Positions 44,484 to 62,293 of a stretch of DNA of 64,000 nt are shown one piece after another. This DNA is from a virus: IMG/VR virus record IMGVR_UViG_3300031746_000001, one strand, 5' to 3'. A program made the translations under genes and the position numbers. Under the pieces are notes generated by a model that ran no database searches, was not told where the DNA came from, and saw nothing but the letters and a program-made list of their open reading frames with translations. The number at the start of each line of letters is the position of its first letter. Position 1 is the first letter of the stretch.

Positions 44484-44795
44484 CTACCACTGATCGGTGA
44501 TATCGGTAAGGGCGACGATCATAACGCTGGCTCTCCGGACGGCGTCCCGGAAGTTATTCGCTATCCGGGTTACCCGCTTGACATCCACAAGGCCCCGGCC
44601 TTTCACCTGTTCGTTGTAGAGATCATTGGCGAGCTTCTTGATCTCGTCCGTGATCTTCACGAGCTTCGAGACATTCTCTGCAATCTCGGCCTGTAGCTCT
44701 TCGGGATCCCTGCTCCGGAGCCCCGCTTCCCCGGGAGAGACGGCAGACTTCAAGGTCTCCTCTGTCAATGCGACCGACTTAAGCAGGTCGTTCAT
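44484..44795 (-). CDS. Leader-bearing small protein
   Basis: True start MNDLLKSVALT at 44795 (ATGA overlap, GAGGTG RBS); coiled coil. Confidence 0.7.
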   Translation of the reverse strand: MNDLLKSVALTEETLKSAVSPGEAGLRSRDPEELQAEIAENVSKLVKITDEIKKLANDLYNEQVKGRGLVDVKRVTRIANNFRDAVRRASVMIVALTDITDQW

Positions 44796-45112
44796 TTGGT
44801 CACCTCGTTGAAAATGTCCATGAGGCCCTTCACCTGCCCGGCAAGGGTGATCCCGGACTTCATGCCCTTCCGGTGAAGCCGAGACTCCTTCTCCTTGCGG
44901 GACCTCGAGCGCATGGTGAGGCCGAGGTCGGACTTCACGACCCTCCGGGTAGCCCTGCGGGCGTCCCTGCTGAACGGGGACACAACCCTTCCTGACTGCA
45001 CCGCGACCTTCCGGTAAGGGACCCGCTTCCACTGCTTGAGATGGGTCTTCTCTCCGGAGACGACCGCAGACGTCAACGCCTGCACTCCACTCAACAAGAC
45101 TTTCATGCTCAT
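44792..45112 (-). CDS. Leader-bearing small basic protein
   Basis: MSMKVLLSGVQAL...; very Arg/Lys-rich. Confidence 0.65.
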   Translation of the reverse strand: MSMKVLLSGVQALTSAVVSGEKTHLKQWKRVPYRKVAVQSGRVVSPFSRDARRATRRVVKSDLGLTMRSRSRKEKESRLHRKGMKSGITLAGQVKGLMDIFNEVTK

Positions 45113-45591
45113 GGTATTTTCTGCTCCCCTGGCGCATCGGCATGCCGTTTAAGTTCACAAGTCCAAAACATGTGGTCACCCGTCCCCCAGTAGAACTCCG
45201 TCGGTGTGACCTTCACAATATCATACTTCGTAAATAAGGGCTGTGGTGTATTCCAAACTAACAGGATATCTCCCCGCTTCGGAAGAGGCCAGCTATTGTC
45301 CTCAATGCTCTTCCGGGGCAGGTGGGCGAGCGCATCGATCTCCCCGATCCCTCCAACCTCGTTCTCCTCCCACGACCAGGTCGGCACTTCAAGATTCCCG
45401 ATGATGTCGTAGGGTCCGGCAAAGACGAAGTCGGACTCCGTCGTGGGCTCCTGATACAGCGGGTCCTGAATCGAGGCCGCCCGATTGATCGAATAGAAGG
45501 AGATATGAAACCCGCTGAGGGCGGGAACCTCCTGGGCGACACCGTCGAACATCCTCCGATCACGTGGATTTTCAAAGAATCTATCGGCCAT
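45109..45591 (-). CDS. Head closure / neck protein (T4 gp14-like)
   Basis: Start MADRFF; E...LSG..I.FYSI......DPLYQE...PKRGDI...YDIV pattern. Confidence 0.65.
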   Translation of the reverse strand: MADRFFENPRDRRMFDGVAQEVPALSGFHISFYSINRAASIQDPLYQEPTTESDFVFAGPYDIIGNLEVPTWSWEENEVGGIGEIDALAHLPRKSIEDNSWPLPKRGDILLVWNTPQPLFTKYDIVKVTPTEFYWGTGDHMFWTCELKRHADAPGEQKIP

Positions 45592-46171
45592 GTGAAAGCA
45601 GTTCCAGGATGTGCTCGAGGTGGCTGTCAATCCCCACAGTGAAGTAAGGGCTGTCGATCGGCTTCAGGTGAACGGGGTCATCGTAAGACTGCTCCTTATC
45701 CTGCCGGATGGTCTCCCACTCCCCCGTCCCTTGAGCCTTCTCAACCTGCACGAGATAGGCGACATCGTTCAGCATCCCGAGGACCCGATTGAACTGCTCC
45801 GTGGAGGTCTCATCGGAGAGCTCCCGGGCGATCTCCAACATATCCTTCTTCGGAACGTAGTAGCGGTATCGCTTCTTGTCTGCCCGCTGAACTTCAAAGA
45901 ACGGATCGCCCGAGTCGGGCTCGATCAAACGGACGCTGAACGAATCCTCGGTCTTGAGGTGATCCCCGACTTCCTTCTGCCCACTCGCCCGTTTCTTGAG
46001 GGTCTCAATTCCCTTCGCCTTGTCGAACCGGAAATCATCGAGAAAGCTCTTAGTGAACCGCTGGCTGGGAAACCAGTATTGAGTGAGCCCGCCGTCTTTG
46101 TCCTGCAGGACGACGAACCAGCCCTTGCTGTCCGACCCGACTTCGTGAAGAGTGAGCCCTTCGGGATCCAC
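45581..46171 (-). CDS. Hypothetical protein
   Basis: 196 aa, coupled on the coding strand. Confidence 0.6.
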   Translation of the reverse strand: MDPEGLTLHEVGSDSKGWFVVLQDKDGGLTQYWFPSQRFTKSFLDDFRFDKAKGIETLKKRASGQKEVGDHLKTEDSFSVRLIEPDSGDPFFEVQRADKKRYRYYVPKKDMLEIARELSDETSTEQFNRVLGMLNDVAYLVQVEKAQGTGEWETIRQDKEQSYDDPVHLKPIDSPYFTVGIDSHLEHILELLSHGR

Positions 46172-46684
46172 TCATTTCCCCCGCTTCTCGTAGGATTCGT
46201 AGGAGATCGCTTCCAGGTTGGAATTCCCCCGAATGAACCGCTCGGCCTCAAAGCCAGTCATGATAACGGCGTCCTCGGGATCCTCCGTATAGTTACCCGG
46301 CCCCTTCGGGGTAAGCCACAGGCCCCGCCCGATCAGCCGAACCATATACTCATCCTGACCACGAAGGCGATTCCCAAAGGCATCCCTCGTCACGAGGTTC
46401 TCGAGCTTCTCATCATCCGTCACCCTCATGGCGTGGGGACGCTGTTTGATCGTGTCCAGAACCCCGAGCGTGTCGTCCACGATCTTCCTGAGATTGTCCA
46501 ACCCTAATCCTCCTCCCCCTCTACGAAACCGAACCGTGAAACCGATCCCTTGTAGATCATCATCTGCGGGCGTGTGTCCTGCTTCATCTGCCTTGTCGAC
46601 AAACCGAACAGCAGGGGCGGGGAGCTTGGCCGGGGTTTCTAGGAGCTCTCGAAGGGAGGTGAGAGCTGGAGCAATGGAACCCAT
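46172..46684 (-). CDS. Hypothetical protein
   Basis: Probable start MGSIAPALTSLRELLE (leader-like helix). Confidence 0.55.
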   Translation of the reverse strand: MGSIAPALTSLRELLETPAKLPAPAVRFVDKADEAGHTPADDDLQGIGFTVRFRRGGGGLGLDNLRKIVDDTLGVLDTIKQRPHAMRVTDDEKLENLVTRDAFGNRLRGQDEYMVRLIGRGLWLTPKGPGNYTEDPEDAVIMTGFEAERFIRGNSNLEAISYESYEKRGK

Positions 46685-46711
46685 GAAGAAGACCCCCCGC
46701 CCCAAAACTGT

Positions 46712-47056
46712 TTAGGTGATCGTAAGGTAGAAGCCCGTCATGACCAGGATGGCGATCACGAAGGACATCGTACCGGCGTAGGCATCGAGCCCCACCGTCG
46801 CGATATCACCCTGAGCCGCGATGACGGCGTCCAGGTACGTCTTGAGGGCGCCCGTCACGGTGGCGTCGATCGCCACCACGAGAGCGGCCATGTTCGCCAC
46901 GGCAACCGTGGTGTCCGGAGCCAGGTACTGCTTGACAGCCGGAACGAGATCGCCGAGACGGAAGTCCAGCGTCTCCTGCCCCACGTGGACGGCCTGGTAG
47001 GCTCCGCCTGGGGCGTATTTGCCACCGATCTGACCCTGCACTACTGTGAACGTCAT
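46712..47056 (-). CDS. Hypothetical Ala/Val/Thr-rich protein, probably structural
   Basis: Strong AAGGAGG RBS and strongly GC3-biased codons like the MCP and sheath genes. Confidence 0.65.
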   Translation of the reverse strand: MTFTVVQGQIGGKYAPGGAYQAVHVGQETLDFRLGDLVPAVKQYLAPDTTVAVANMAALVVAIDATVTGALKTYLDAVIAAQGDIATVGLDAYAGTMSFVIAILVMTGFYLTIT

Positions 47057-47080
47057 TTCATCCTCCTTTTGGTTAAGTGA

Positions 47081-47794
47081 CTACCCCGTTAAAAACGGGA
47101 TTTGTGAAGCCCTACTCAGGCTATCCTCTTCGGTCTCCTTGAGTTCTTCAGAGGATTCTTCCAACAACCTGTCGGCGTCCATCTCGACTGGACCGCCTGG
47201 CCCAGGGTACTGCTTATACTTCCCCCTGATCCTTCCGAGCATCTGCTTACATCGCGCTGTCACCCTCCGAGCGTAGAGATCAATATCTGCGGCCGCTTGA
47301 AGGTCCTCGATCTTCGTTGCCAGGATCCAGGCGTCGTAAAACAACGTGCCGATCGTCTGTGGGAGCTTCCAGGTCCGCAGAATCCTGGTCCCGGGGTCAT
47401 ACTCCCATCCGGTGCCTCCGGCGATCCGCCCGAGCGTCTCGGAGTGCTGAAGGTAGAGAACGAGAGCGGAAAACCGATGCCCCAACCTCCGGTAGTCGTG
47501 CCCGACCTGCCAGAGAACGAATCCCGGGAGATCGAACGAGAACTGACCGAGGTAATCCAAACCCGCATAGACGTTGCTCACCCCGATCGTCCCACTCGGC
47601 AGGGTATGCTCCTCATACGCCCAGTTCCCGACCGGGATTTCCAGAGACAGAACCTCCGATCCCAGCCTCGTGTTGAACCACCGCAGGGCATCCCTCAAAG
47701 CCGCCTGCCAGTGTTCCTCCTCGAGCTCGACGGCGACCTTCGTCCCGAACCCGAGCTTGGCGAATACTTCCTGCTTGAGCTCGGCCTCGGTCAT
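47081..47794 (-). CDS. Neck / head-tail adaptor protein (T4 gp13-like)
   Basis: LG...VAVEL......A..DAL..F N-terminus; A.CK.MLGRIRGKY...PGPGG.VEMDAD.L..E...E...P..TG C-terminus. Confidence 0.8.
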   Translation of the reverse strand: MTEAELKQEVFAKLGFGTKVAVELEEEHWQAALRDALRWFNTRLGSEVLSLEIPVGNWAYEEHTLPSGTIGVSNVYAGLDYLGQFSFDLPGFVLWQVGHDYRRLGHRFSALVLYLQHSETLGRIAGGTGWEYDPGTRILRTWKLPQTIGTLFYDAWILATKIEDLQAAADIDLYARRVTARCKQMLGRIRGKYKQYPGPGGPVEMDADRLLEESSEELKETEEDSLSRASQIPFLTG

Positions 47795-47815
47795 CTCTGC
47801 TGGCGCCAGCGGAGG

Positions 47816-48472
47816 TTAAACATACGCCGTACCCCGCCCGCCTTTCTTGCTGTGTGTCTTGGAGGCCACCTGGACGGGCTTCGTCCCGGGTTTGTCCGGC
47901 TTGACCGGGGAACCCGCCTTCTGACCGGGTTTGGGAGGCACGGGAGCCTCTTTCTTACCCCCCTGGGCTTCACCAGGGGCTTCTGGTGGGGTTTTGGCCC
48001 CCGACCCGGCCTCCGACCCCTCCGTCCCGGCCTTCCCCTCCTTTGGGGGCTTTCCCCCCTCAGCCTTCGGCGCCTCCGGAGCATGCGTGTGGAGTGGCGT
48101 TTCCACGGCCTCGGTCATCGCTGACTGTAGGCCATCCCCGACCCCTAAAACGACTTCCTGCGGAGGTTCGGACGCAGGCGACATGGCGGGAGCCGGAGTT
48201 ACCGGAGGCGCAGGCTGAGGTATAGGCGACGCCCCAGAGGAGCCTATCCCTTCGACAGGTCCAGGAACCGGCTCGTCGGATGCCGGAACCTGTTGCACAG
48301 GAGGTGGAGGTGCCGACAAGGGATTGCCGGAGGCGTCGCATTCTATCAAACGGTCATCCGGAGGGATCGCATAGATCGCCCAGTGGTCGCCTTCGATGAC
48401 CATGCCGGAGGAGAACATATTCCCCCCGCAGGAGATCTGGCCGTATTTTGAATTCTTCTTCCAGTATCTCAT
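47816..48472 (-). CDS. Pro/Ala/Gly-rich, largely disordered protein
   Basis: Short globular N-terminus followed by about 160 aa of low complexity and a basic tail. Confidence 0.65.
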   Translation of the reverse strand: MRYWKKNSKYGQISCGGNMFSSGMVIEGDHWAIYAIPPDDRLIECDASGNPLSAPPPPVQQVPASDEPVPGPVEGIGSSGASPIPQPAPPVTPAPAMSPASEPPQEVVLGVGDGLQSAMTEAVETPLHTHAPEAPKAEGGKPPKEGKAGTEGSEAGSGAKTPPEAPGEAQGGKKEAPVPPKPGQKAGSPVKPDKPGTKPVQVASKTHSKKGGRGTAYV

Positions 48473-48475
48473 CCC

Positions 48476-48793
48476 CTAAACCCTTTCTATCACGTCGGGA
48501 AGAATGTCTTTCACGGCATCGGCAATCGCCTGGATGTCGGATCGTGGAATCTTCTCCGCGACCCGATCCCCGATCCGTCTCGACTTTCCACGGAGCTCGT
48601 CCACGCCCTCGAGATGATAGCCGATCCCCGAGGCGATCCATATCTTCACGGAGTCGGGAGAGGCGAGCCACCGCAAGATAGAGTTAATATCCACGGCACT
48701 CTGGACCGGATTCTCCTTCACGGGATACCCCAGAAACCTTGCCCCTCCGACCATCTGATCGATCGAAGTTACTGCCAAGAGAAGTTCATTCAT
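48476..48793 (-). CDS. Leader-bearing small protein
   Basis: MNELLLAVTSI; GGAGG RBS. Confidence 0.7.
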   Translation of the reverse strand: MNELLLAVTSIDQMVGGARFLGYPVKENPVQSAVDINSILRWLASPDSVKIWIASGIGYHLEGVDELRGKSRRIGDRVAEKIPRSDIQAIADAVKDILPDVIERV

Positions 48794-48801
48794 AAGTCCT
48801 C

Positions 48802-49077
48802 CTATGCCGTCATTGAGGCCCGAACAAGGTCCAGAAGCAGGGACTGGTTATTCGCCAGATCATGGAGCTTCTGCCGAGTCCCTTCCAGGTACTGCACGTC
48901 TATAAGTGCTACCAACCGATGGGATAATTTCACGCTCACCTTCTGATCAACCCCGGCGAACCTGAGATCGTTGGAAATGCCTCCCGAAAGCATCCCCACG
49001 ATGTTGTGAAAGTCTATTCCCCGAAGGTAGTGCTCGACCTTCTGAACAACCCTTGCTTCCTCCGGTGTCATGTCCAT
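48802..49077 (-). CDS. Hypothetical small protein
   Basis: 91 aa, GAGGG RBS; no clear leader. Confidence 0.6.
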   Translation of the reverse strand: MDMTPEEARVVQKVEHYLRGIDFHNIVGMLSGGISNDLRFAGVDQKVSVKLSHRLVALIDVQYLEGTRQKLHDLANNQSLLLDLVRASMTA

Positions 49078-49086
49078 AGCACCCTC

Positions 49087-49494
49087 TCATTGGGATTTGC
49101 TCCGAAACAGCTTCTTGATCTGAGCGTCGGTGTAGTGCTTGACCTTATACATCGCGAGGTCATCGAGGGCCCCGTTGATCGAATGGTAGTTCTCGTTCTC
49201 GAGGATCTCCCACACCCGCTCCGAAAGGGAGCTAGGCTTAACCCCGAGCCTCCTAACGGCAACCTCTACGTTCTCCTTATAACCGTCCCAGTCCCCCCAG
49301 GGCCCCGAGGCGTCGTCCCAACCCTTGCTCCGCCAGATGTCCTCGTCGATCTTCATGAGCTCGGTCGCCAGCTTCTTGTCCCGCTGTGGCGTATCCTTCA
49401 GCCGGGCGTAAAACGGAGACTCCCCGAGGTCGTCCGTTGTGCGGACGCTTAGGAGCCCAGCAAGGGACCGAATCGCTTCAAGCAGGGTTCTCAT
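49087..49494 (-). CDS. Leader-bearing small protein
   Basis: MRTLLEAIRSLAGLLSVR. Confidence 0.7.
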   Translation of the reverse strand: MRTLLEAIRSLAGLLSVRTTDDLGESPFYARLKDTPQRDKKLATELMKIDEDIWRSKGWDDASGPWGDWDGYKENVEVAVRRLGVKPSSLSERVWEILENENYHSINGALDDLAMYKVKHYTDAQIKKLFRSKSQ

Positions 49495-49497
49495 GGT

Positions 49498-49938
49498 CTA
49501 CATGAAGAACTTCGTGAACTCGGGATCCTCGAGGGCGTTCGTATAGGCTCCCTCTTCCTCCGAGATCCGGCGAACTTCCTTCGGGTTGATCGCCTGCTTC
49601 TTGATGATCTGGATGGCCTGCTCTTTGGTCATGTTCTCGTCTTCCAGCATGTCACCGATGTGCCTGGCATCTCTGAAGTCCCCGTAGAGGACGATCGCCA
49701 GGTCAGAGTAACCCTTCTGCCGGAGGGCTTCGATCCACGCATCGGCGAGCTCTGGGTTCGTGGCGAGGGCCGAGTGACCCCAGAAGCCGAACCCTCCCGA
49801 GATGTAACGGCCAGCCCGCAGGAACTCCTTCGTGGAGAGCTTGTTCTTGATGTCCCAGATCGACCTCTCCCGAGCGTCAAAGAGCTCCTCCCCGCACATC
49901 GAAGCCAGAAGCTGAACGGCTCGAGTTTCCTTTTTCAT
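49498..49938 (-). CDS. Leader-bearing small protein (CGE subclass)
   Basis: MKKETRAVQLLASMCGEELFDAR. Confidence 0.7.
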   Translation of the reverse strand: MKKETRAVQLLASMCGEELFDARERSIWDIKNKLSTKEFLRAGRYISGGFGFWGHSALATNPELADAWIEALRQKGYSDLAIVLYGDFRDARHIGDMLEDENMTKEQAIQIIKKQAINPKEVRRISEEEGAYTNALEDPEFTKFFM

Positions 49939-49939
49939 G

Positions 49940-51085
49940 TCAGTCCTCCTTGTGGTGCGGTTTGTCGCCCCGGCTTTTCATCCAGTAGGAGTTATGCGAG
50001 AAAACCCCTGCGGATATGGCGAACGTATGAATTCCCTTAACAGCGACATCATACATCGGAATGATGGTATCGAGAAAATCGATCTTAACTATAAAGTGGT
50101 TCTGAGCCTCTCGAGCTTCCCGGGCCCTTCGCTTTCCTTCGCCGACCTTTTTCCCATGATCCGAACCATAGTTTCTCCGAAGATTTGCCTGCCTAATCTT
50201 CTCTATCGCATCCGCAGACTGAGAAGTTCCGAACGGACGACCGCCAAGCAAACCACTCCTGTAAGACTGATCCCTGAGAAGTCCCGACCGACGTTCTCGC
50301 TCTTCGGGAGACATTTCGGCCCATTGCTTCAACGTAGTCTCTTTGGACTTTTTCGTATGCAACCTTCTGAATTCCGGGTCCGATCTCCACTTTTTATCCC
50401 ACGCTAACCGCATCGCCTGAACCTTGTCCTTTCCATGATGCTTATTATGGAAATCCCGCAACATCCAAACTAAGTTTTCAGGGCGGTTATCTCGAGGGTC
50501 TTCATTGAGATGGTGCCCGACATGCTCGGCGGAGGGACAGCCTAAACCCATCTCCCGCATTACAGCCCAATGCGTAAGGCCATAGCACCCGAGGCCGGGA
50601 TGGTAAACCATCTCATGCCCCACAATTCCACGAGCCATTCTTGATTTTGACACACTGCTTGTCGTCCTGAATGGCATCAGAGAATCATCTACGTTCAGAG
50701 CCTTCGTTTCGACGAAAGACCCATCACGTTTGACCCAGCGGTGCTCCGGAGAACAGGTTAGAATCTCACCGTTATCAAGCGCAATTTCCACGGCAGGACG
50801 CACCCCGACATACTTTACCCGGGCAAGACCGGGAACGACTATCCCTGTCGGGTCAACGGAGTAAAGCCAGAACTCGGCATTAGCCTCTGCAAGTGCATGC
50901 AGTGACCTGATTTTTCCGTCCAAACATGGAACCTCCGTATCACCTCCTAGACACAAAGCGAAGGGGTTGTCGATGTCCTTGTGCTTCTTCATCGCCCGGA
51001 CGGTCCCGCCCCAGCCCGGGGGAGACACGTTCACGAGCTTGAAGCTCTGCGAGAGATCGACGACGGCGGTCAATAATTCCTTCAT
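49940..51085 (-). CDS. Leader-bearing 60-aa protein interrupted by an intein
   Basis: N-extein MKELLTAVVDL...VSPPGWGGTVRAMKKHKDIDNPFAL (44 aa); C-extein SYWMKSRGDKPHHKED (16 aa). Confidence 0.85.
   Translation of the reverse strand: MKELLTAVVDLSQSFKLVNVSPPGWGGTVRAMKKHKDIDNPFALCLGGDTEVPCLDGKIRSLHALAEANAEFWLYSVDPTGIVVPGLARVKYVGVRPAVEIALDNGEILTCSPEHRWVKRDGSFVETKALNVDDSLMPFRTTSSVSKSRMARGIVGHEMVYHPGLGCYGLTHWAVMREMGLGCPSAEHVGHHLNEDPRDNRPENLVWMLRDFHNKHHGKDKVQAMRLAWDKKWRSDPEFRRLHTKKSKETTLKQWAEMSPEERERRSGLLRDQSYRSGLLGGRPFGTSQSADAIEKIRQANLRRNYGSDHGKKVGEGKRRAREAREAQNHFIVKIDFLDTIIPMYDVAVKGIHTFAISAGVFSHNSYWMKSRGDKPHHKED
49991..50953 (-). mobile_element. Intein with HNH endonuclease
   Basis: Begins CLGGDTEVPCLDG; block B LDNGEILTCSPEHRW; HNH motif HHLNEDPRDNRPENL......HNKHH; ends MYDVAV.GIHTFAISAGVFSHN followed by +1 Ser. 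Confidence 0.93.
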
Positions 51086-51094
51086 GATATCCTC

Positions 51095-51724
51095 CTACGC
51101 GGCCTTCAGCCCAACCTGCCGGGCGTATTCTTTCCAGGTATCCCCGTCCACCAGAATGTCGGCCACATCGTTGTTGGCAATCATGTCCCCGTACTCGTCC
51201 TGCAGGGTCCCGAGCATCTCTTCCACGATCCCCTGGATGAACTCCGTCAGGTCGGCCCCGCCGAGGAACGGAGGGACGCAGGAGTAGCCCCGGGTCGAGA
51301 AGGCGATGCTCACAGGAGAACGACGATCGTTCAGTGCTTTCTGGACCTCTGGATCGTTCGGGTCTGCCCCGGCCTCCTTGAGAAAGAGCCTGACGTCCTT
51401 GACCACTGCGTTCTTGAGCACGAGGCGCTCGGGCCTGAAGTAGTAGTCCGGGCTGTCTCCCTCGGGATCCTTCCAGCTCATCTTCGGGCTCACCCAGAGG
51501 ACATCCTCACATTGGATCCCGTAATCCGACAGGCGGCTCCGGAAGTGCGCCTTCAGGTTGCGATCGAAGTCCCCGTAGACCCGATCTCTGCGGAAGAGCT
51601 CCATCATCATGAACTGCGTGGACAGCTCGAGGTCCTGAAAATCCTTCTCCCGGTTGGGATCGAGATAGAGCCCCAGGAAGATCCCGCTGGTTAAGGTATT
51701 CACAGCTTCGAGCAAGTCCCTCAC
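51095..51724 (-). CDS. Leader-bearing protein
   Basis: MRDLLEAVNTLTSG; GTGA overlap. Confidence 0.7.
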   Translation of the reverse strand: MRDLLEAVNTLTSGIFLGLYLDPNREKDFQDLELSTQFMMMELFRRDRVYGDFDRNLKAHFRSRLSDYGIQCEDVLWVSPKMSWKDPEGDSPDYYFRPERLVLKNAVVKDVRLFLKEAGADPNDPEVQKALNDRRSPVSIAFSTRGYSCVPPFLGGADLTEFIQGIVEEMLGTLQDEYGDMIANNDVADILVDGDTWKEYARQVGLKAA

Positions 51725-52092
51725 GGCTCCCTTAAGCCAAAGGGGTCTTCCTCTGCGAGATCACGGACGACCTCCTGCAATTTATCCGTAATCAATCCCA
51801 TGCCCTTCTGGATGTCGGAATTGTCCCGCAGGTACTGAAAGAGCACGTCCACGACCTGTGCAACGACTTTGGAATCTCCGGAATGCCCGACCGCATCCTT
51901 GATGAACTTCAGCACGTACTCGGACAGCTTCTCGGGGTCGCCCAAGACTCCCCCGTTCGCCACCTGAAGGGCAGTCTTCTGAAGGACAGCGGGATCCACG
52001 CCTTTGTAGCCCAAGACCCTGGTCCCTGTGGACAAGATCGGTTCCCCGCACAACTCGGCAAGGATTAAAACGGCTTTATTCTCTTGGCTCAT
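51721..52092 (-). CDS. Leader-bearing small protein (CGE subclass)
   Basis: True start MSQENKAVLILAELCGE at 52092, after AAAGGA. Confidence 0.7.
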   Translation of the reverse strand: MSQENKAVLILAELCGEPILSTGTRVLGYKGVDPAVLQKTALQVANGGVLGDPEKLSEYVLKFIKDAVGHSGDSKVVAQVVDVLFQYLRDNSDIQKGMGLITDKLQEVVRDLAEEDPFGLREP

Positions 52093-52093
52093 G

Positions 52094-52591
52094 CTATCCT
52101 TTCTCGCCCACGGCGGTGTAGATCGCCTCGTAGACCGCATCCGCATCGTCCCGGTCTTTGGCGGCATATTCAAAAGCCCCGACGATGATATTATAGGCCT
52201 TCGATCCATCCGAAAGGGTCTCCTCCACATACTGCAGGTTCGGCTTGCCCCGATCGTCCATCAGGGTCTTCATGAGAACCTTCGTGTTCCTAAGACCACT
52301 CTCCAACGGCTTCCCCTCCCGAGAGCTCCCCATCGGCCAACCCCTCCTCTCGAGGATCTGTGCAATCTCGGAAGTGACATCTCGGCCCTTCAGAGCCTTC
52401 TGCCGGAGCCGAACAAAGTCCCAGGCTATCTCATTGGAGACCTTCCCTTCTTTCTTGAAATGGTCTGCCATCTCGGAATCCGAGGACGCCTCATCGTTGA
52501 CCAGGATGGCGGCGACCCAATTTACTAAATCGTCCGAGGGCTTCACCGCGGCCTCGAGCTCCTGCAGGGCTTTGATTACTTGGCTTCTCAT
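52094..52591 (-). CDS. Small protein with leader-like helix
   Basis: Probable start MRSQVIKALQEL (52591; 52597 is an alternative). Confidence 0.65.
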   Translation of the reverse strand: MRSQVIKALQELEAAVKPSDDLVNWVAAILVNDEASSDSEMADHFKKEGKVSNEIAWDFVRLRQKALKGRDVTSEIAQILERRGWPMGSSREGKPLESGLRNTKVLMKTLMDDRGKPNLQYVEETLSDGSKAYNIIVGAFEYAAKDRDDADAVYEAIYTAVGEKG

Positions 52592-52598
52592 GGTCATC

Positions 52599-52949
52599 CT
52601 AAGCCCAGTCCCGGTTCTCGAGGTTCTCCTGTGACTTCTTCGCTTCGAAATACATCTCGCTAGCGGCACCAGCGGCCGTGCGGAGAGACTGCACGACCTT
52701 CTTGATCTCCTGGGTATACTTGGGATCGAACTGCTTGATGGCATACTCCACGTTCCCGGCCAGCTCGTTCAGGAACTGCTCGGCGGCTTTCCCCCACCTC
52801 ATCGTCTCCTTGAGCTTATCCATGTCATCGTCTGACATGAAAATCGCATCGGGGTCGCGGGCGGCCATCAGCCTATCCCCGATCTCCGTCCCGTCGTCCT
52901 CCCCACATAGGACACCCAGCCAGTCCACCGCTTGCTTGAGATTGTCCAT
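52599..52949 (-). CDS. Leader-bearing small protein (CGE subclass)
   Basis: True start MDNLKQAVDWLGVLCGE at 52949 (TGATG overlap). Confidence 0.7.
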   Translation of the reverse strand: MDNLKQAVDWLGVLCGEDDGTEIGDRLMAARDPDAIFMSDDDMDKLKETMRWGKAAEQFLNELAGNVEYAIKQFDPKYTQEIKKVVQSLRTAAGAASEMYFEAKKSQENLENRDWA

Positions 52950-53902
52950 CACTTCTTCCCCCATTCTCTTGCGAGAGCATGCCACACTTCATCGACGGCA
53001 TCCTGGATGGACCGAAGGGCGTTGCCGAGCTCCCCGGAAGCCGACGTCCTTCCCCCCATCGTCTCTTCGAATGCGTCTCCGGCTATCCGGGCCAAATCCT
53101 TCGGGTTACTCTTGTTGATCATCCGGGCCTTCTCATCGATCTCCGGCCACACCTTCTCCTTGATCACAGAGAGGATATCCTGCCGGAGATCGCCGGGCTT
53201 AACGGCCCCCGTCATCAGCCCGGCGAGGGTGTAGAGCTCTTCCTTGTGGGTAGCCGTCGGGTCCTCCCCGGCGTTGGTAAGCTTCTCGGCCATGACCCGG
53301 CCCCGCTTGTCGTAGCCCCAGATCTTCAGGTAGTTCCGGGCCGAGTCCGCCAGCTCTTTGTAATCCTTCCCCTGATCGCTGTTCACCCCGTAGATGTCGA
53401 CCTGCTTCTCGAGGGCGTAGATAAAGGCATACATCTTCTCCGGCTTCCCGATCTTCGTGATGCGGGTCCTGAGAGCTGGGATGCTCATGGTTTCGATCCG
53501 CATGAACTCGTGGTCGACCTCCCGGTAGGATGGGCTCTCGAGATCGCCGGTGGGACCCACCTTCGAGTAGATACCTTCGACCCCGGCGGCCCTCATCCCC
53601 CCGTGCTTCCTCGAGTAGGTGATGAAGTCGGTGTCAATGGCCTCGTTCCCGTGATCGCTCACCATCCAGACGCTCGGCCAGAACTTGTTCTTATTCATCC
53701 AGCCCAGGATTTCCTTGTAGAACTTGTCCCAGTCATCCCCGTCTAAGGTAGCGATTTCCTTCTGACTCTGATAGGCCGCAGTTCCGCCACCCCGCTCGTC
53801 CTGGATGAAGACATCTTCCTCGTCGGGCTCCAAGTCGTCCTCAAACCTCGAGAGGACGAGAACCTTGCGGAGCGAATCTAAGGATTCCAAAAGGGTATTC
53901 AT
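52949..53902 (-). CDS. Leader-bearing multi-segment protein
   Basis: True start MNTLLESLDSL at 53902 after AGGAGG; contains FWPSVWMVSDHGN and helical C-terminal segments. Confidence 0.7.
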   Translation of the reverse strand: MNTLLESLDSLRKVLVLSRFEDDLEPDEEDVFIQDERGGGTAAYQSQKEIATLDGDDWDKFYKEILGWMNKNKFWPSVWMVSDHGNEAIDTDFITYSRKHGGMRAAGVEGIYSKVGPTGDLESPSYREVDHEFMRIETMSIPALRTRITKIGKPEKMYAFIYALEKQVDIYGVNSDQGKDYKELADSARNYLKIWGYDKRGRVMAEKLTNAGEDPTATHKEELYTLAGLMTGAVKPGDLRQDILSVIKEKVWPEIDEKARMINKSNPKDLARIAGDAFEETMGGRTSASGELGNALRSIQDAVDEVWHALAREWGKK

Positions 53903-53909
53903 GATCCTC

Positions 53910-54263
53910 CTATCGGGATAACGCCTTTTTCTGGTAATACTCGGCCTTCTTCGAGAACTGATTCCACATGGCCTCCATGTTCCGCCCGAGGCTTTCGATA
54001 TCCGCCAAGACCTTCTTTGCCAGGGGATCGTTGTCCCACGCCCACCACAGGATTCCCGCAACCTCCGGAGCGGCGTCTCCCCCGATATCTTTGAAGAGTA
54101 TCTCGCTGAAGTAGCCCTCCATCATCCAATCCTTGAACCGACGAGCCTCCTCAGTAAAGGTTGCCAGCTCCCTCTGGATCTCCGGGATGGAATGATCGTC
54201 ACCCCGGGCGGAGACCACCAGACCACGATCGATGCCCTGTGTAGCTTCCAGAAGGGCTCTCAC
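53910..54263 (-). CDS. Leader-bearing small protein
   Basis: GTG start at 54263 (GTGA overlap): MRALLEATQGIDRGLVVSAR. Confidence 0.7.
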   Translation of the reverse strand: MRALLEATQGIDRGLVVSARGDDHSIPEIQRELATFTEEARRFKDWMMEGYFSEILFKDIGGDAAPEVAGILWWAWDNDPLAKKVLADIESLGRNMEAMWNQFSKKAEYYQKKALSR

Positions 54264-54523
54264 ACCTTCCTCCCCAAGTCCCCGTTGATCTGACCGATCA
54301 GCCTCGACGTGATCCGGGTGTGCTTGTCCTCGTCGGCGAAGTTCTCGATCATGTCGCCGTAGGGATCGATCTTCTCGAGTTGGTTGAGAAGCTTGTCGAT
54401 CTGGACGAGGAGGTCCCTGCACTTCTCGGCCCGGGCGGCGAAGTCTCCCCGCAACGTATCCGTTGACCGGGCGGAGACCAGTCCCGTCTCGACGGCCTGC
54501 ATAGCTTCTAGTAAGGTTCTCAT
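54260..54523 (-). CDS. Leader-bearing small protein
   Basis: MRTLLEAMQAVETGLVSAR. Confidence 0.7.
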   Translation of the reverse strand: MRTLLEAMQAVETGLVSARSTDTLRGDFAARAEKCRDLLVQIDKLLNQLEKIDPYGDMIENFADEDKHTRITSRLIGQINGDLGRKV

Positions 54524-54837
54524 CTGAGGCTCCTTTCGATTGACCGCAGAGACGTCACCAGATCGTTCATCGGCCCGCTTTCCGAGCTCTTAACGTAGGT
54601 GTCGACATCCACACCCCCGCACTTCGGGCACCCGTCATTCGCCGCCCGCTCGGCAGAAGCTGTCGTGTAGAACTTCTTCCCGCACTCCTGGCACATGAAC
54701 AAGGGCTCTCCGGCAGACTGGACGACCTGCTTGGTCTGGACCGGAACCACTGCGGCAGACACCGGATCGTGGGCGGCTATTCCAGGGAACAGAATTTGCT
54801 CCAACCGTCCAAAGGCTTCTTTGAATTCCTTGTCCAT
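54520..54837 (-). CDS. Zinc-ribbon protein with a leader-like C-terminus
   Basis: CQECGKKF...CPKCGG; ends MNDLVTSLRSIERSLR. Confidence 0.7.
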   Translation of the reverse strand: MDKEFKEAFGRLEQILFPGIAAHDPVSAAVVPVQTKQVVQSAGEPLFMCQECGKKFYTTASAERAANDGCPKCGGVDVDTYVKSSESGPMNDLVTSLRSIERSLR

Positions 54838-55715
54838 CAGCCCTCCCTCGGCTTGATAATCCCGCCCGCTTCTTCGAACATCTTTCTCGGGTTCTTGGCG
54901 ATCTGCTTGGCGTCCTCCAATTCGCCCTTAAGAAACTCCTTGATCCTGCGGAGCTGTCCGTTCTCCCCTCCCGTCTGACGGTTCAGGATATGGTAGAACA
55001 CGTCGACCAAACCCGACCATCCGATATCACCCTTCGATGGGGGCATCAGCTCATCGGCAATCTTTCCTACGGCATCGTCGTAGGCATCCTTGATGGCATC
55101 GACCATATCCGGATCGGTTAAGGCTTTGGCGTAGCCCTCAGCGTAGTTCCCGAGAGCCTTCACCTCATCGTCGGAGTCCAGCCAGATATCGCCCCGGGCC
55201 GAGTTCAGCCTCCGACCACGCATGATCCGGGAGTCCTCCAAGTCATCATCGTCCTGCTCTTCGATCCCCTCCACAAACCGCAGGAAGTCCCTCTTGATCC
55301 GGTCGCGGTTCTTGTCGTCGATGATATACTTCTCTTTGCGGAGGTTCTCGGCAATGAATTCAAGTTGCCATGAATCCCTGCCAACCGTCTTGTGGGCGAA
55401 GTATTTCTCCTGATCGGGGATCGTGATCTTATACCGTTCCCACATCTCATCATCCCCAAGTTCATGCTCGAGATAGACGTAGCTGTTGGGACCCGTGATA
55501 TCCTCCGGAACGACCCCGCCCGTGGAGACCGTAAGAGTATCCCCCTTCTTGACCCATTGATTCTCATCATACATCACCACGAAGGTGATGCCCCCGAACT
55601 GGTCGTAGAAGGAATGCGTCCACCTCCGGGCGGTGTCATCGTCTACGCCACCACGTGCAGACTGCAGGCCCACCTGGGAGGCTACGTCCTTGACCGCTTG
55701 AAGCAGGTTATTCAT
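54837..55715 (-). CDS. Leader-bearing two-segment protein
   Basis: MNNLLQAVKDVASQVGLQSAR; an internal LNSAR precedes the second segment. Confidence 0.7.
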   Translation of the reverse strand: MNNLLQAVKDVASQVGLQSARGGVDDDTARRWTHSFYDQFGGITFVVMYDENQWVKKGDTLTVSTGGVVPEDITGPNSYVYLEHELGDDEMWERYKITIPDQEKYFAHKTVGRDSWQLEFIAENLRKEKYIIDDKNRDRIKRDFLRFVEGIEEQDDDDLEDSRIMRGRRLNSARGDIWLDSDDEVKALGNYAEGYAKALTDPDMVDAIKDAYDDAVGKIADELMPPSKGDIGWSGLVDVFYHILNRQTGGENGQLRRIKEFLKGELEDAKQIAKNPRKMFEEAGGIIKPREG

Positions 55716-55716
55716 C

Positions 55717-55950
55717 TCAATTCACCCCCGCGATTTTGGTAACGAACTTGGCGATCCGGTCGAGTTCTTCGACGTTCCTCTCAAGCTCCCTTTTTATGCT
55801 ACTATCCTTCTTGAAATGGTCCTGAAGGCCAATGAGCCCGCCCGCCGCCGCTTCGGTATTGTCAAAGGCGTCCTGCGCCTTTCTTAAAAAATCAGCGTCC
55901 TCGTCCATCTTGGACTGCAGGGCTTCAACCGCAGACAGAAGGTTTCTCAT
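55717..55950 (-). CDS. Leader-bearing small helical protein
   Basis: MRNLLSAVEALQSK. Confidence 0.7.
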   Translation of the reverse strand: MRNLLSAVEALQSKMDEDADFLRKAQDAFDNTEAAAGGLIGLQDHFKKDSSIKRELERNVEELDRIAKFVTKIAGVN

Positions 55951-56333
55951 CCCTTCCTCCTTTCGATGTCTTTCATGATCGACTCGGCCCGATCCGAGAA
56001 CTCCTTCGCATGGTTAGCGAAGCCTGCGGCCTCGTCCTTGAGCTGGGCGATCAGGATAAGCTCATCGTCCGAGGCCTTCCGGGCTACGTTCGCCCCGCCG
56101 ATGTAGCCGGACGTATTTCCCCGGAGAGCTTCGACATCATAATGCCTTTCCGGTTTTGCGAACGTGAAGGACGAGGTAAGACGCCCTGACCGGACGGCGT
56201 CCTTCTTCTCATTGTCCCGCTTCTCCATCCGCTTTCGGGTCTCGTCGTCGGGCACGTCCTTCGTCGGGGAGGCGGGGGACATCGGCGCTAGGGAAGGCAT
56301 GGCGGCATTGACCAACCGAATAAGTTCTTTCAT
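55947..56333 (-). CDS. Leader-bearing small protein
   Basis: MKELIRLVNAA; internal RLTSSF. Confidence 0.65.
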   Translation of the reverse strand: MKELIRLVNAAMPSLAPMSPASPTKDVPDDETRKRMEKRDNEKKDAVRSGRLTSSFTFAKPERHYDVEALRGNTSGYIGGANVARKASDDELILIAQLKDEAAGFANHAKEFSDRAESIMKDIERRKG

Positions 56334-56566
56334 GTCAAATCTCCATATCTGGATGTGAATTGAAACTCCCCAGTCTTCCCGAGCTCCTGAAACATCTCGA
56401 GAATTTCCTCAAGCTCGCTCTTGGAATCTACTCTCGACGGGACCCGGGAGGCATTCGGATATCCGGCGACCTTCCGATCCTGCTCATCCTCCGAACGCTT
56501 CACGGTGCGGGCTTGGAACCGGAGCTCAGGTCCAACCTGTGCGATCAGTCGAAGCAGTTCGTTCAC
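56330..56566 (-). CDS. Leader-bearing small protein
   Basis: MNELLRLIAQVGPELRFQAR. Confidence 0.65.
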   Translation of the reverse strand: MNELLRLIAQVGPELRFQARTVKRSEDEQDRKVAGYPNASRVPSRVDSKSELEEILEMFQELGKTGEFQFTSRYGDLT

Positions 56567-56567
56567 C

Positions 56568-56909
56568 CTATAACCTCAACGTCAAAGAAAAGATATCTCG
56601 GGATGCCTTCTTGAACCTCTCGGGATCGATTAGCTGTCCCATCTCAGCAAGGGCATCCAAAGCCTGTCCGGTCTGGGAAAGTATGTCCTTAATGCTCTCA
56701 AGCATATCCGCTCCGGCCATCTCGCGCCTCTTAGGGTTTGGATCAGAGGCCTTCTTGACGGCTTCCAAAACATGATCAGCGAAGTGAGCTATGAGGTTAG
56801 CGCGACCCCTAAGTTCATCGAGTGCACCTAATGGATAACGATCCTCACGGTTCCATACGGCCATCAAAGAGCCTTCAACCAGAACAAGAGAAGATAGAAG
56901 CTCCCTCAT
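56568..56909 (-). CDS. Leader-bearing small protein
   Basis: MRELLSSLVLV. Confidence 0.65.
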   Translation of the reverse strand: MRELLSSLVLVEGSLMAVWNREDRYPLGALDELRGRANLIAHFADHVLEAVKKASDPNPKRREMAGADMLESIKDILSQTGQALDALAEMGQLIDPERFKKASRDIFSLTLRL

Positions 56910-57226
56910 CGGCGTGGCGACACTCCCTGAGTAGTGGACTCCCCGGGCTTGCCTGTTCGCATCATCACATCCCCTCGAGTAAGAAACTCCCCGTTCTTCA
57001 TGATAAACCCGTCGACGAAGCCCGCCTCATCGGGATCCTCCATCAGATCGTAATACCGATCCACCACGCTGGCGGGTAACCGGGCTAACAGCCGAGCATG
57101 GGTCTCCCCCGGCCTGCCCTGGTAGACCCGACCGTCTATCTCGAAGGCCACAGCGTGAACCTGCTTCGCCGGAACCAGATCGACCGCCGAGTAAACCCTC
57201 CGTGTGCATATGAGGAGACAATTCAA
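56906..57226 (-). CDS. Small protein with GF...GEFLTR motif
   Basis: MNCLLICTRRVYSAV; H...DGFIMKNGEFLTR. Confidence 0.6.
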   Translation of the reverse strand: MNCLLICTRRVYSAVDLVPAKQVHAVAFEIDGRVYQGRPGETHARLLARLPASVVDRYYDLMEDPDEAGFVDGFIMKNGEFLTRGDVMMRTGKPGESTTQGVSPRR

Positions 57227-57489
57227 TCCAATCCCGCTTGTTTGAGCCTGGTGTAGTAGTCGGGGTGATCTTTGAGATGCGCCAGGGCGATATGCCCCGT
57301 GGTCACGAGATCCCCGCCGGTGACGTCGTAGTGTTCAAGCTCGTCCGCAAGCCCCATCCGGAACTGCTCCGGATCGACGTCGAAGTCCGGGGCGATATCC
57401 TCAAGCACCTGCTGGGCGATCGCCTGCGATATCTCCTGGTTGATCAGAACCCTTCCTATGCGATTAACGGAGGCCAGAAGCAGGTCCAT
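57223..57489 (-). CDS. DUF5661-like small protein
   Basis: EQFRMGLADELEH...IALAHLKDHPDYYTRLK; start MDLLLASV at 57489 (TGATG overlap). Confidence 0.75.
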   Translation of the reverse strand: MDLLLASVNRIGRVLINQEISQAIAQQVLEDIAPDFDVDPEQFRMGLADELEHYDVTGGDLVTTGHIALAHLKDHPDYYTRLKQAGLD

Positions 57490-57917
57490 CAGTCCCACCA
57501 GAGGCGGATCTCGTTGTTCTCGGCGTTAACCTCGTCGGCCCCGACTTTCCGGGAGTCTTCGATCATCTCGGCAATTTCCTCGAGGGGTCTCTTCCCGCCA
57601 CGGACGTAAACGCACGGCGATCCCTCCCGAGCAAGCTGGACCTCGAGCTTGGGTTCGATCCGCTTCAGGGCTCGGATGCTGTTCGGGGTGAACTCGTTGT
57701 ATGAGTCGATCCCCGCATGTTCGAACTCCCGAGCGGCGTCATCGATGGAAAGCCATCTCGAGTCGCGCCACTCGTAGACCTCCTTCGTGCGCTTGAGATC
57801 GCCCCGCCCCATCCCGTAGACGTCCTTGAGGCTTGTGGCGCTCGAGAGCCGGACCCTCTTGGGCTCTCCAGCCAGGGACTCAAGGCAGGAGTTAATGACG
57901 TTCAAAAGATAGTCCAT
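57489..57917 (-). CDS. Leader-bearing small protein
   Basis: MDYLLNVINSC; AREGSPCVYV...ADEV...IRLWWD; AAGGAGG RBS. Confidence 0.7.
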   Translation of the reverse strand: MDYLLNVINSCLESLAGEPKRVRLSSATSLKDVYGMGRGDLKRTKEVYEWRDSRWLSIDDAAREFEHAGIDSYNEFTPNSIRALKRIEPKLEVQLAREGSPCVYVRGGKRPLEEIAEMIEDSRKVGADEVNAENNEIRLWWD

Positions 57918-57926
57918 GTGGCCTCC

Positions 57927-58334
57927 TTATAAGGTGACACCCGCCCGCTTCGCCATCGAGACGGGATTCTGTGCGGTAGCCTTGCAAGCCGAGATGAGCC
58001 GATCGAGGACGCCATAGAGTGCGGCCTCCATCCCTCCCTGAGTATGCTCGGCCTGCCAATCGACTATGTTCTCTGTGATCGCCAGGATATCGACATCGTC
58101 TCTAAGCCCGGCCTTCTTCATGGCTCCCTCCCACCGCTCCCCGATCGCCTCCATAAGCATCGTATAGAAGTCGCCCTTCTCGGCTTCTATTTTAGTCGCC
58201 ATCTCTGTGGCGAGCTTCGCGACGTTATCCGACATTTCCTGATCGAATCCCGATCCCCGCTGGGACTGCACGGGCGGTCTGGCATTCAGAAAACCCTCGA
58301 GCTCCGATATCGCATTCATCAGAACCTTACTCAT
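57927..58334 (-). CDS. Leader-bearing small helical protein (first gene of the array)
   Basis: True start MSKVLMNAISELEGFLNAR at 58334, after AGGAGG. Confidence 0.7.
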   Translation of the reverse strand: MSKVLMNAISELEGFLNARPPVQSQRGSGFDQEMSDNVAKLATEMATKIEAEKGDFYTMLMEAIGERWEGAMKKAGLRDDVDILAITENIVDWQAEHTQGGMEAALYGVLDRLISACKATAQNPVSMAKRAGVTL

Positions 58335-58505: not shown

Positions 58506-59951
58506 TTACATGTTGAGGACTGTGACGAGGGCGTAGTACTCGGTATAGATGAGCTTCGTGGCATACCGAGTACGGAGACCCTTCTTCAACCCGAAGTCCG
58601 TCGGGTCCATGAACGTCGGGGTCATCTGGATCGGGATATACGGGGCGTAAACGTAGCCCGCATCCATCCAGTAATCCCCCTTCAGGCCCAGCAGAACCTT
58701 GGTCGATGTGAAGTAGGGGTCTACGTAGACCGCCCACTTGGACTGCAGAGTCCCGGCGAAGTAGATCCCGGGTCTCCGAGGCGGGGTCACTGGGACGCCC
58801 GTCTCCGGGACGGAACCGACCGCTGGCCGGAACAGCTGGTGCGTGGCGAACTGGTCGAACAGGGCCGCCACGTCGGGCGAGGTCACGATCCAGTTCGCGG
58901 GCGAACGGAGCGTCCGCTTGTGGATCGCATTCGACGCCGTCGACAAGACGGTTAGGATCGACCGGATGTGATCGATGTCCGAGATGCCGGACGGCACGGT
59001 GCGGTCCCAGTTATACTTCACGACCGCATCGACGTGGGTGTAGATGTCGTTGATGATCTCGCGGTCGACTTCCAAGCCGATCTGGCTGGAAACCCCGGCC
59101 ACGAGTTCCGACTCCACGTCGATTCCGTGCAGGGCCCGCAGGTCTTCTGCGGACTCCGTGGACCAGACGGCCTTGAGCTTGCGGCTCCGCGCCCGAACCT
59201 CGGCGATCTCCACGGCCACGTCCACTTCCGGGACCGCCGTGTTGAGCTCGCTGTTGTATTCGTAGAACGCGGTGACCACGCCCACCTTCTGCGAGGTCAA
59301 AGACGGAATGACCATGGCGAAGGCGCCGTTGGTGTAATTGATCGACCCCGAGGCTCCGACTGCGTCACCGACCAGGGTGCCCGACCCGTTGGCGTCGGTG
59401 TAGCGGATCGTCCGGGGGGACGTCTCGTTGGTCACGACGGTGATGATCGGCCCTGCGGCTCCGGCGTCGGTCGCCTTCTTCACAGGGGTGAAATCCAGCG
59501 AAGCGGAGTAGGTCAGGTCCCCGCCGCCTCCGGCTGGGGTCGTCCCGACTGCCTCGTTGCTGATCGTCTCCGACGAGTAATACATGTCGAAGTTTGCGAT
59601 CATCTCCGTGCCCTTCGTGGTGGCGCCCTTCTCGGTCCCGTATTTGACCTTGAAGTAGGACACGGCGCCCACGGGGGCATTCATGGGCTGGACGGACACA
59701 ATCTCGTTGGAGATCAGGAACGGCCAGACCCTCCGAACCACCGGGAACACGTGCTTCGTGTAGTAGCCCGCATCTCCGGTCGTCGTGCTCCCGGCGTTAG
59801 CCAGGTAGATCAAGTGGTCCATCTCGTTCTCGAGGAGCCGGGACACGCAGAACTTCCGGTACGGCTCCTTGATCGAGCGAGTGAGACGGTGCCACTTGCT
59901 CATCAAAGCCTGGGCTTCGGGAGTTTTCCAGGCTGTCAGCAACTGTTCCAT
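58506..59951 (-). CDS. Major capsid protein (T4 gp23-like)
   Basis: LLEN, FPVVRRV, VSVQPMNAPVG, RSRKLKAVWSTESAEDLRALHGIDVESEL......EVDREII, ANWIVTSP, YAPYIP, DF..KKGLRTRY. Confidence 0.97.
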   Translation of the reverse strand: MEQLLTAWKTPEAQALMSKWHRLTRSIKEPYRKFCVSRLLENEMDHLIYLANAGSTTTGDAGYYTKHVFPVVRRVWPFLISNEIVSVQPMNAPVGAVSYFKVKYGTEKGATTKGTEMIANFDMYYSSETISNEAVGTTPAGGGGDLTYSASLDFTPVKKATDAGAAGPIITVVTNETSPRTIRYTDANGSGTLVGDAVGASGSINYTNGAFAMVIPSLTSQKVGVVTAFYEYNSELNTAVPEVDVAVEIAEVRARSRKLKAVWSTESAEDLRALHGIDVESELVAGVSSQIGLEVDREIINDIYTHVDAVVKYNWDRTVPSGISDIDHIRSILTVLSTASNAIHKRTLRSPANWIVTSPDVAALFDQFATHQLFRPAVGSVPETGVPVTPPRRPGIYFAGTLQSKWAVYVDPYFTSTKVLLGLKGDYWMDAGYVYAPYIPIQMTPTFMDPTDFGLKKGLRTRYATKLIYTEYYALVTVLNM

Positions 59952-61570: not shown

Positions 61571-62293
61571 TTAGACCGGGATGTCTTCCGGATTGGGCTT
61601 CTTCTCGACCAGGGTCGGGTTGTCCGGATCGTCGGTGTCGTGGAGCTTCTTGGTCGTCCCTGCGGCCGGTCCCGGGCCGAGCGCCTGGTCGACTTCCTGG
61701 GCCACCTGCAGGAACCGATCCATCACGGCCAGCACGTCCTGGGTCGAGGACTTGATCTCCTCTTCCTCGGGCTTCTGAGCGGCCGCCTGCTTGGTGAGCT
61801 CCTTGTCCGCCGTGTCGAGATCGTCGGCGGCCATCGTCGCGTCCTTCTTGTCGATGACCCCCTCCTCCGACAGGATGCGGAACTTGCTGGACAGGACGCT
61901 GATCATCTTCTTGACGTTGACGATCACGTCTTCGGGCTTGTCCTTCACGGAGGCGCTGGACAGCCGACGTCCGAGGCGCACCCTTGCCGCCTCGAGACGC
62001 CACATCGTCTCGCGCTGTTCGCTGGACCCGAGCTCCAGCCGCTTGGCCGCACGGGCGCAGGCCACACGGCCCGTGCCGCTCGCCAGCCAGGCCTTCCGAT
62101 CGGCGCTGTTATTCAACGCCGGGCTCTTCTCGATCTCATCCCGACCTTTCGGGGGATCGTCATGTTCCTCCCCCGGGACCGGTGGATCGACGCCTGGTTC
62201 TTCTTGCCGGTCCTCTGCGACCAGCAATTTTCCCAGCCCGAGGATTTTCAAATCCTCCTCGAGCGTGGAGAGTCGTCCCGTCTTGTAAGGCAT
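61571..62293 (-). CDS. Acidic prohead core-like protein
   Basis: 240 aa, charged and helical, between portal and protease; AGGAGG RBS. Confidence 0.6.
   Translation of the reverse strand: MPYKTGRLSTLEEDLKILGLGKLLVAEDRQEEPGVDPPVPGEEHDDPPKGRDEIEKSPALNNSADRKAWLASGTGRVACARAAKRLELGSSEQRETMWRLEAARVRLGRRLSSASVKDKPEDVIVNVKKMISVLSSKFRILSEEGVIDKKDATMAADDLDTADKELTKQAAAQKPEEEEIKSSTQDVLAVMDRFLQVAQEVDQALGPGPAAGTTKKLHDTDDPDNPTLVEKKPNPEDIPV

Follow-up and report, generated by a model that had tools for sequence, protein, structure and literature searches.

A shared N-terminal leader beside the capsid gene of an uncultured T4-like phage: a probable internal-protein locus with a re-tuned protease code

Introduction

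In phage T4, propeptides target the internal proteins to the prohead core and are then removed by the head protease gp21 (PMC9026906, PMC9958956), with targeting by this capsid targeting sequence (CTS) depending mainly on residues 4 and 7 (PMC9026906). T4 gp21 cuts after I/L-x-E (PMC12991175), and the enzymes of phiKZ and SPN3US also cut after glutamate, within S/A-x-E and A-x-E (PMC9026906, PMC10052503), so that all gp21-type head proteases for which we found a measured specificity (T4, phiKZ, SPN3US) share this preference. The ip loci of T-even phages are hotspots of variability, and their products inhibit specific GmrSD enzymes (PMC12373910). In this study, we analyzed a block of small genes sharing an N-terminal leader, located between the capsid and tail genes in a 64,000-nt stretch of viral DNA (IMG/VR record IMGVR_UViG_3300031746_000001), to which we refer as the window. 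We propose that the block resembles the internal-protein locus of T4 in its working and that its processing code has probably shifted from glutamate to serine or asparagine.

Results

The window covers the structural region of a T4-like myovirus, with all genes on the minus strand in the order portal, 289-amino-acid (aa) core gene, 240-aa scaffold-like gene, gp21-family protease, gp23-family major capsid protein (MCP), leader block, neck, sheath and tail. Its DNA is present in sediment metagenomes, no RNA data set is listed among those carrying it, and the phage is uncultured. The complete, 160-kb sister genome IMGVR_UViG_3300035660_000001, whose capsid protein is 91% identical to that of the window, served as whole-genome background for the leader tests. 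All other relatives show a capsid identity of 49% or less, and intermediates between them and the window/sister pair were not found among the metagenome or genome contigs searched.

Gene starts on the minus strand were called without reference to the motif, and the co-oriented, tightly coupled genes of the block were found to begin with an 11-residue amphipathic pattern. In its strict form, this leader occurs at 10 of 30 gene starts in 44484–58334 and at none of the 52 other genes of the window (Fisher p = 1e-5); the sister genome gave 10 of 32 block genes versus 0 of 174 elsewhere, non-structural genes included (p = 2e-9). A leave-one-out profile built from all block genes also set the block apart from the background (p = 2e-11). 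M-x-x-L-L-x-[AS] opens 12 block genes, and about 11 to 12 more carry a variant or an offset of one or two residues, bringing the leader genes to 23–24 of 30 when variants and offsets are counted. The sequence-only reading, an earlier inspection of the letters, had described a fixed-register leader on an array of about 20 genes; the enrichment holds and the array is of that order, although five genes in the interval are leaderless conserved core genes (Table 1), and the gene starting at 56566, given as an example of the pattern, breaks its own [AS]7. Also borne out is its remark that the MCP and the protease begin similarly, with L-L-x-[AT], while tail and baseplate genes do not, the tail genes being coupled as tightly as those of the block. 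It had overlooked a second element of the type hydrophobic-x-[SN]-small, which lies at residues 13–32 in 14 of 24 leader genes and in 30 of 160 background genes (p = 1e-4), and with it a putative processing motif free of glutamate. Co-folding of the leader with the 289-aa core protein, the scaffold or the protease tail scored 0.00 and is not used as evidence.

The codons at L4, L5 and A7 are diverse, with leucine, alanine and serine codons mixed, and no long DNA repeat was found beneath the leader, so that a DNA-level repeat or recombination site was rejected as its origin. Comparison of window and sister orthologues revealed 4/51 amino-acid changes at positions 4, 5 and 7 versus 14/51 at positions 2, 3 and 6 (p = 0.018), where residue 6 is the most variable of the leader and changes at positions 4, 5 and 7 are mostly silent. 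Codon mixture and silent changes together place the signal at the protein level, and we could thus confirm that the leader is real and conserved as protein, not as DNA.

A departure from T4 concerns the predicted processing sites. The equivalent of the MCP maturation site reads L-A-N↓A in the window and L-A-S↓A in the sister genome (the arrow marks the predicted cut position, here by homology), at a position where hydrophobic-x-E is found in 146 of 146 relatives, 142 of them anchored and four flagged and judged by inspection. Of 104 relatives, 98 have D or E at the N-terminal self-cleavage position of the protease, equivalent to L-I-E9 of T4; the window has T7. A 60-aa module encoded in the block is preceded by L-V-N in the window, compared with E at 46 of 48 loci and in 129 of 147 representatives. 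In the protease tails of relatives, [LI]-x-E is in excess (284 versus 173 expected, 23 genomes), an excess lost in the window (7 versus 7.1). The scaffold-like protein shows the same loss (3 versus 3.2) together with an enrichment of [LIV]-x-S (7 versus 3.0, p = 0.014), as do the leader genes of the window ([LIV]-x-S 32 versus 16.2, p = 0.001; [LIV]-x-E 16 versus 17.3), and this serine excess was not seen in the remainder of the sister genome. The hydrophobic-x-[SN]-small motif additionally joins modules inside longer array proteins. A capsid tree calculated without the tested region groups the window/sister pair with a sister clade in which glutamate is retained (support 0.997), and the loss of glutamate is therefore derived, on one long branch. 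From this covariation, a gp21 protease that is specific for, or prefers, Ser/Asn appears likely.

The protease itself is recognized by PF03420 (61 bits), its catalytic H76, S129 and D155 are intact and invariant, and its fold matches that of T4 gp21 (PDB 5JBL) with a TM score of 0.80 and a root-mean-square deviation of 1.9 Å. E73C together with R86E was considered as cause of the new specificity and rejected, since four related loci with T73 and E/D86, three of which fall in the sister clade of the window/sister pair, keep Glu in capsid protein and leaders. In a scan with the pattern GCLDHP, the sister genome alone matched among head proteases.

The bodies behind the leader are mutually unrelated and include a DUF5661 protein, in line with the diversity stated by the sequence-only reading; its basic peptides are the exception, as most bodies are acidic (isoelectric point, pI, 4.5–5.5) and just three are basic. 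As to their functions, DUF5661, a zinc ribbon and an intein were the only usable matches in Pfam, PHROGs, NCBIfam, PDB and ESM Atlas, and in Pfam, PHROG, NCBIfam and PDB no tested body matched a known effector or the T-even Ip family. Internal cut motifs are not enriched in the bodies (31 versus 27). One widespread body is the 60-aa module mentioned above, the extein of the intein-containing gene, with more than 1,100 relatives and no match in cultured phages. In some relatives (P0276, P0287) it follows a 10-residue T4-type tag. Ala (K/R/E/Q-x-A type) stands ahead of it in L147 (2866–3471) and in 14 other proteins, which suggests that another phage group uses a third processing code, and non-Glu processing of such cargo would thus not be unique to the window lineage; S77 and gp23, which would have made L147 a second gp21 lineage, were not found in its incomplete record.

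The array varies between strains. Compared with the window, the sister genome has two leader genes more and one fewer, with indel ends at start codons; one leader-gene loss maps to a crossover within two paralogous leaders, and a co-occurring strain lacks precisely the gene 48476–48793. Read mapping further revealed that gene 44792–45112 carries two insertions in a co-occurring strain, the first where a site behind the leader is predicted and the second at the 3' end. Both gained modules begin with hydrophobic-x-S-A (I-T-S↓A and L-K-S↓A), a motif present in 0.4% of the 8-residue windows of the background proteome. Gains and losses of genes and modules between strains fall at start codons, within leaders or at the proposed cut motif. 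At 51806–51813 and 44591–44651, array genes of co-occurring strains show short frameshifts that are compensated, or segments that have been replaced.

The corresponding region of related phages also contains small genes outside the conserved core. Their helical leaders are specific to each phage and end in L-x-E, and in L006, L035, L049 and L097 they keep the same register as in the window. At the N-termini of these non-core head-region genes, [LIV]-x-E is enriched (135 observed versus 92 expected) and Ser is not. In L035 (12794–17481), at least seven genes share one 19-residue leader with tandem Glu sites, a Glu-type counterpart of the window array. The gene before the protease encodes a protein of 1,100–2,350 aa in L098 (5267–9985), L100 (6507–9989) and L038 (879–7931). 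That of L038 contains a module which is a separate leader gene in the window, and this suggests that cargo can be fused to scaffold.

Discussion

The window array shares with T4 Ip1–Ip3 unrelated small bodies behind a common 10–19-residue N-terminal propeptide, variability between strains matching the hotspot behavior of T-even ip loci, and the presence of gp20, gp21 and gp23 homologues; residues 4, 5 and 7 are conserved in the leader, of which 4 and 7 are key in the T4 CTS. It differs from T4 in comprising 23–24 genes instead of three, arranged as a single run that separates the capsid from the tail genes, in a longer, Leu-rich leader helix, in a processing motif that ends in Ser/Asn and not in Glu, and in its mostly acidic cargo, for which no body similarity to T4 Ips was found. 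By sequence, the array thus departs from the T4 Ip family in the Glu site, in basic cargo and in homology. By analogy, it nevertheless likely works in the manner of the T4 targeting system, given the same-register L-x-E leaders of relatives and a cargo module found behind T4-type tags. The head-targeting tag on a variable payload proposed by the sequence-only reading is, in the same analogical sense, supported by the genome context with its gp20/gp21/gp23 module, the shared module, strain variation and the T4 precedent (PMC9026906, PMC9958956, PMC12373910).

We therefore propose a model in which the leader helix, like the CTS of T4, would dock its protein onto the core while the prohead is being assembled, whereupon the gp21-family protease would cut after Ser/Asn, sometimes Thr/Ala, rather than Glu. 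Such cutting would remove the leaders, separate the modules of multi-module precursors and process the MCP and the protease itself, all substrates having presumably co-evolved with the enzyme during the shift. The released modules may then stay in the head, enter the host with the DNA and act early, possibly against defense. This last step is the weakest of the model: early-acting, injected modules are plausible by analogy with T4 Ip1–3, at somewhat less than even chances, and the ejected effector or anti-defense payload of the sequence-only reading has to be set against bodies that match no known effector and are mostly acidic. Taken as a whole, an internal-protein locus of the T4 type whose protease code has been re-tuned is a fairly probable description of the sequence data, if slightly less so than either of its two parts. 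Less likely than not is the widest version, in which a Glu to Ser/Asn switch of the protease, with co-evolved sites in capsid, protease and about two dozen cargos, yields an orthogonal modular loading code for strain-variable injected effectors.

Compared with T4 gp21 and MEROPS family S77, the window protease is alike in family, fold, intact catalytic His and Ser and an N-terminal strand at the self-cleavage position. It differs in that equivalent sites carry N, S or T where T4 has I/L-x-E, in a changed loop after the catalytic Asp and in its fusion to a 340-residue scaffold-like tail. Loop 156–165 and N114 are candidates for its S1 residues. The phiKZ gp175 and SPN3US gp245 systems resemble the window in that numerous head proteins carry an N-terminal propeptide that can be removed, with redundancy among the sites; however, their ejection proteins are large and conserved, those of the window small and strain-variable, and their enzymes cut after Glu. 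Herpesvirus assemblin cuts at (V/L)-x-A↓S, with hydrophobic P3 and small P1 and P1'. This enzyme (clan SH, family S21) is a distant fold match and its motif resembles the one proposed here, but it belongs to another family with about 12% identity, and the resemblance would be convergent.

Several observations weigh against the proposed model. A clear [SN] site in residues 9–34 is missing from 10 of 24 leader genes, and the cargo is acidic, unlike the T-even internal proteins. No protease residue is tied to the new specificity, the E73C/R86E candidate having been ruled out, and two further homologous sites, at the C-terminus of the protease domain and the N-terminus of the scaffold, can be aligned with or without a retained Glu. 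Finally, the shift is a single evolutionary event with no replicate, since the lineage comprises only two sister genomes and close strains.

Part of these data would also fit proteins that are targeted to the head and processed but serve as structural or dispensable parts of the core or inner body, like T4 gp67, gp68 or scaffold fillers, and are degraded or left in the ghost. The mostly acidic and helical bodies without match to any known effector are as expected for such components, and the module shared with the giant L038 protein sits there at the scaffold position. Yet the bodies are mutually unrelated, include zinc-binding and globular modules, show no excess of internal cut motifs and vary between strains, which fits cargo better than scaffold, and we consider core components unlikely. 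Less likely still, in our view, is a protease that was broadened to Glu plus small residues instead of switched, or a loss of Glu sites because cleavage there is no longer needed. Several L-x-E motifs do persist in the protease tail and in the leaders (L4-L5-E6), the two ambiguous sites leave room for retained Glu, and T4 gp21 tolerates non-canonical sites (PMC12991175). However, no leader position varies more than residue 6, the Glu excess is wholly gone, and the replacements, in many unrelated proteins as well as where new modules are joined, converge on hydrophobic-x-[SN]↓small, whereas plain loss would create no new conserved motif.

The shared start itself could be a by-product of duplication or recombination in 5' ends, or an element of translation coupling or oligomerization unrelated to capsid targeting. 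The crossover between paralogous leaders that accounts for one gene loss and the 1–4 nt overlaps between many genes would agree with such an origin. Synonymous codon diversity combined with purifying selection on residues 4, 5 and 7 does not, nor do the equally coupled yet leaderless tail genes, nor a motif that tracks the head protease site across phages, and this origin is highly improbable. A targeted and processed internal-protein array therefore remains our preferred reading.

If this reading is correct, the natural recoding of a cut site across all substrates would show that an essential protease and many substrates can shift specificity together, and searches for packaged phage proteins based on L-x-E would miss whole lineages. 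About 25 orphan proteins of the array would furthermore become candidates for an early role in infection, and the leader would add a second tag for head loading, possibly orthogonal to the first. T4 gp21 activity triggers CBASS (cyclic-oligonucleotide-based antiphage signaling) through Glu sites (PMC12991175), and a change in specificity could, speculatively, alter detection by protease-sensing systems of this kind.

Additional features of the locus and its relatives

Table 1. Head genes, leader genes and core genes of the window
Feature	Coordinates	Strand	Remarks
Portal (gp20-like), 3' part	63358..64000	-	PF07230
289-aa conserved head-module protein, putative core	62321..63190	-	between portal and scaffold in relatives too; no Pfam match
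240-aa scaffold-like protein	61571..62293	-	
Prohead protease (S77/gp21)	60013..61536	-	PF03420; protease domain 60997..61536; long C-terminal scaffold-like tail
MCP (gp23-like)	58506..59951	-	PF07068; starts L-L-x-A
MCP maturation-site equivalent	59793..59804	-	L50-A51-N52↓A53; L-A-S↓A in sister, hydrophobic-x-E in anchored relatives
Leader gene, offset +1	57927..58334	-	135 aa; candidate site F-L-N↓A at 17
Leader gene	57489..57917	-	142 aa; candidate site L-S-S↓A at 26; orphan body
Leader gene	57223..57489	-	88 aa; DUF5661 body
Weak-leader gene	56906..57226	-	106 aa; TTG start
Leader gene	56568..56909	-	113 aa; not in sister genome, indel ends at start codons
Leader gene	56330..56566	-	78 aa; sister version 155 aa with extra C-terminal module
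Leader gene	55947..56333	-	128 aa; internal L-T-S↓S
Leader gene	55717..55950	-	77 aa
Leader gene	54837..55715	-	292 aa; two modules, L-x-S↓A-R ahead of each (residues 19 and 172)
Offset-leader gene	54520..54837	-	105 aa; V-Q-S↓A, then zinc ribbon; leader-like helix at end
Leader gene	54260..54523	-	87 aa; candidate site L-V-S↓A
Leader gene	53910..54263	-	117 aa; leader paralogous to that of 54260..54523, body unrelated
Leader gene	52949..53902	-	317 aa; first module also inside 2350-aa head-region protein of L038
Leader-variant gene	52599..52949	-	116 aa
Offset-leader gene	52094..52591	-	165 aa; internal L-E-S↓G
Leader subfamily gene	51721..52092	-	123 aa; A7-V8-x-x-L11 kept
Leader gene	51095..51724	-	209 aa; candidate site L-T-S↓G
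Leader gene	49940..51085	-	intein-interrupted, widespread 60-aa module; L-V-N ahead of module
Intein with HNH endonuclease	49991..50953	-	sister genome has empty allele
Leader subfamily gene	49498..49938	-	146 aa; 5' end resembles crossover between two paralogous sister-genome leaders
Leader gene	49087..49494	-	135 aa; candidate site L-L-S↓V
Doubtful-leader gene	48802..49077	-	91 aa
Leader gene	48476..48793	-	105 aa; cleanly absent in co-occurring strain
Leaderless conserved core gene	47816..48472	-	
Neck protein (gp13-like), leaderless conserved core gene	47081..47794	-	PF26809; within block
Leaderless conserved core gene	46712..47056	-	
Gene with leader-like start	46172..46684	-	170 aa; second leader-like helix at 46501
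Leaderless conserved core gene	45581..46171	-	
Leaderless conserved core gene	45109..45552	-	follows neck gene in relatives
Offset-leader gene	44792..45112	-	106 aa; basic (pI 11.7); two modules gained in sister strain
Leader gene	44484..44795	-	103 aa; candidate site L-K-S↓A

Leader-like sequences were also observed outside the array or in unusual positions. In L083 (15201–15900; sister 35201 and 35445), two genes with paralogous leaders and the motifs I-S-S↓R and L-S-S↓R lie upstream of the portal and possibly constitute a second cargo locus. A gene of the baseplate/tail region (window 7327–7725, minus strand) is among the top background scores of the leader profile; in window and sister alike, L-I-S↓A lies close to its start. 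At the end of the zinc-ribbon gene (54520–54570, minus strand) lies a complete leader-like helix that no body follows; it may be left over from a gene since lost, or may serve as a targeting element at the C-terminus.

The HNH intein of the array (49991–50953, minus strand) resembles inteins in terminase and portal genes of relatives, and the empty allele of the sister genome encodes Gly in place of the +1 Ser of the intein allele; the 60-aa module is unusually small for an intein host and presumably not essential. Amid the tail genes, two paralogous ATP-grasp (GARS-like) genes are found (30245–32635 and 22246–23571, minus strand), the former with a LAGLIDADG intein that the sister genome lacks, and a free-standing LAGLIDADG endonuclease gene between the sheath and tube genes (39769–40560, minus strand) is not present in the sister genome either. 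A sigma-70 promoter scan gave fewer matches than in shuffled sequence. The sister genome additionally encodes 33 tRNA genes, a nearly full set (L089 14592–19692 and L082 9–166), as well as sugar-nucleotide enzymes, glycosyltransferases and DNA methylases.

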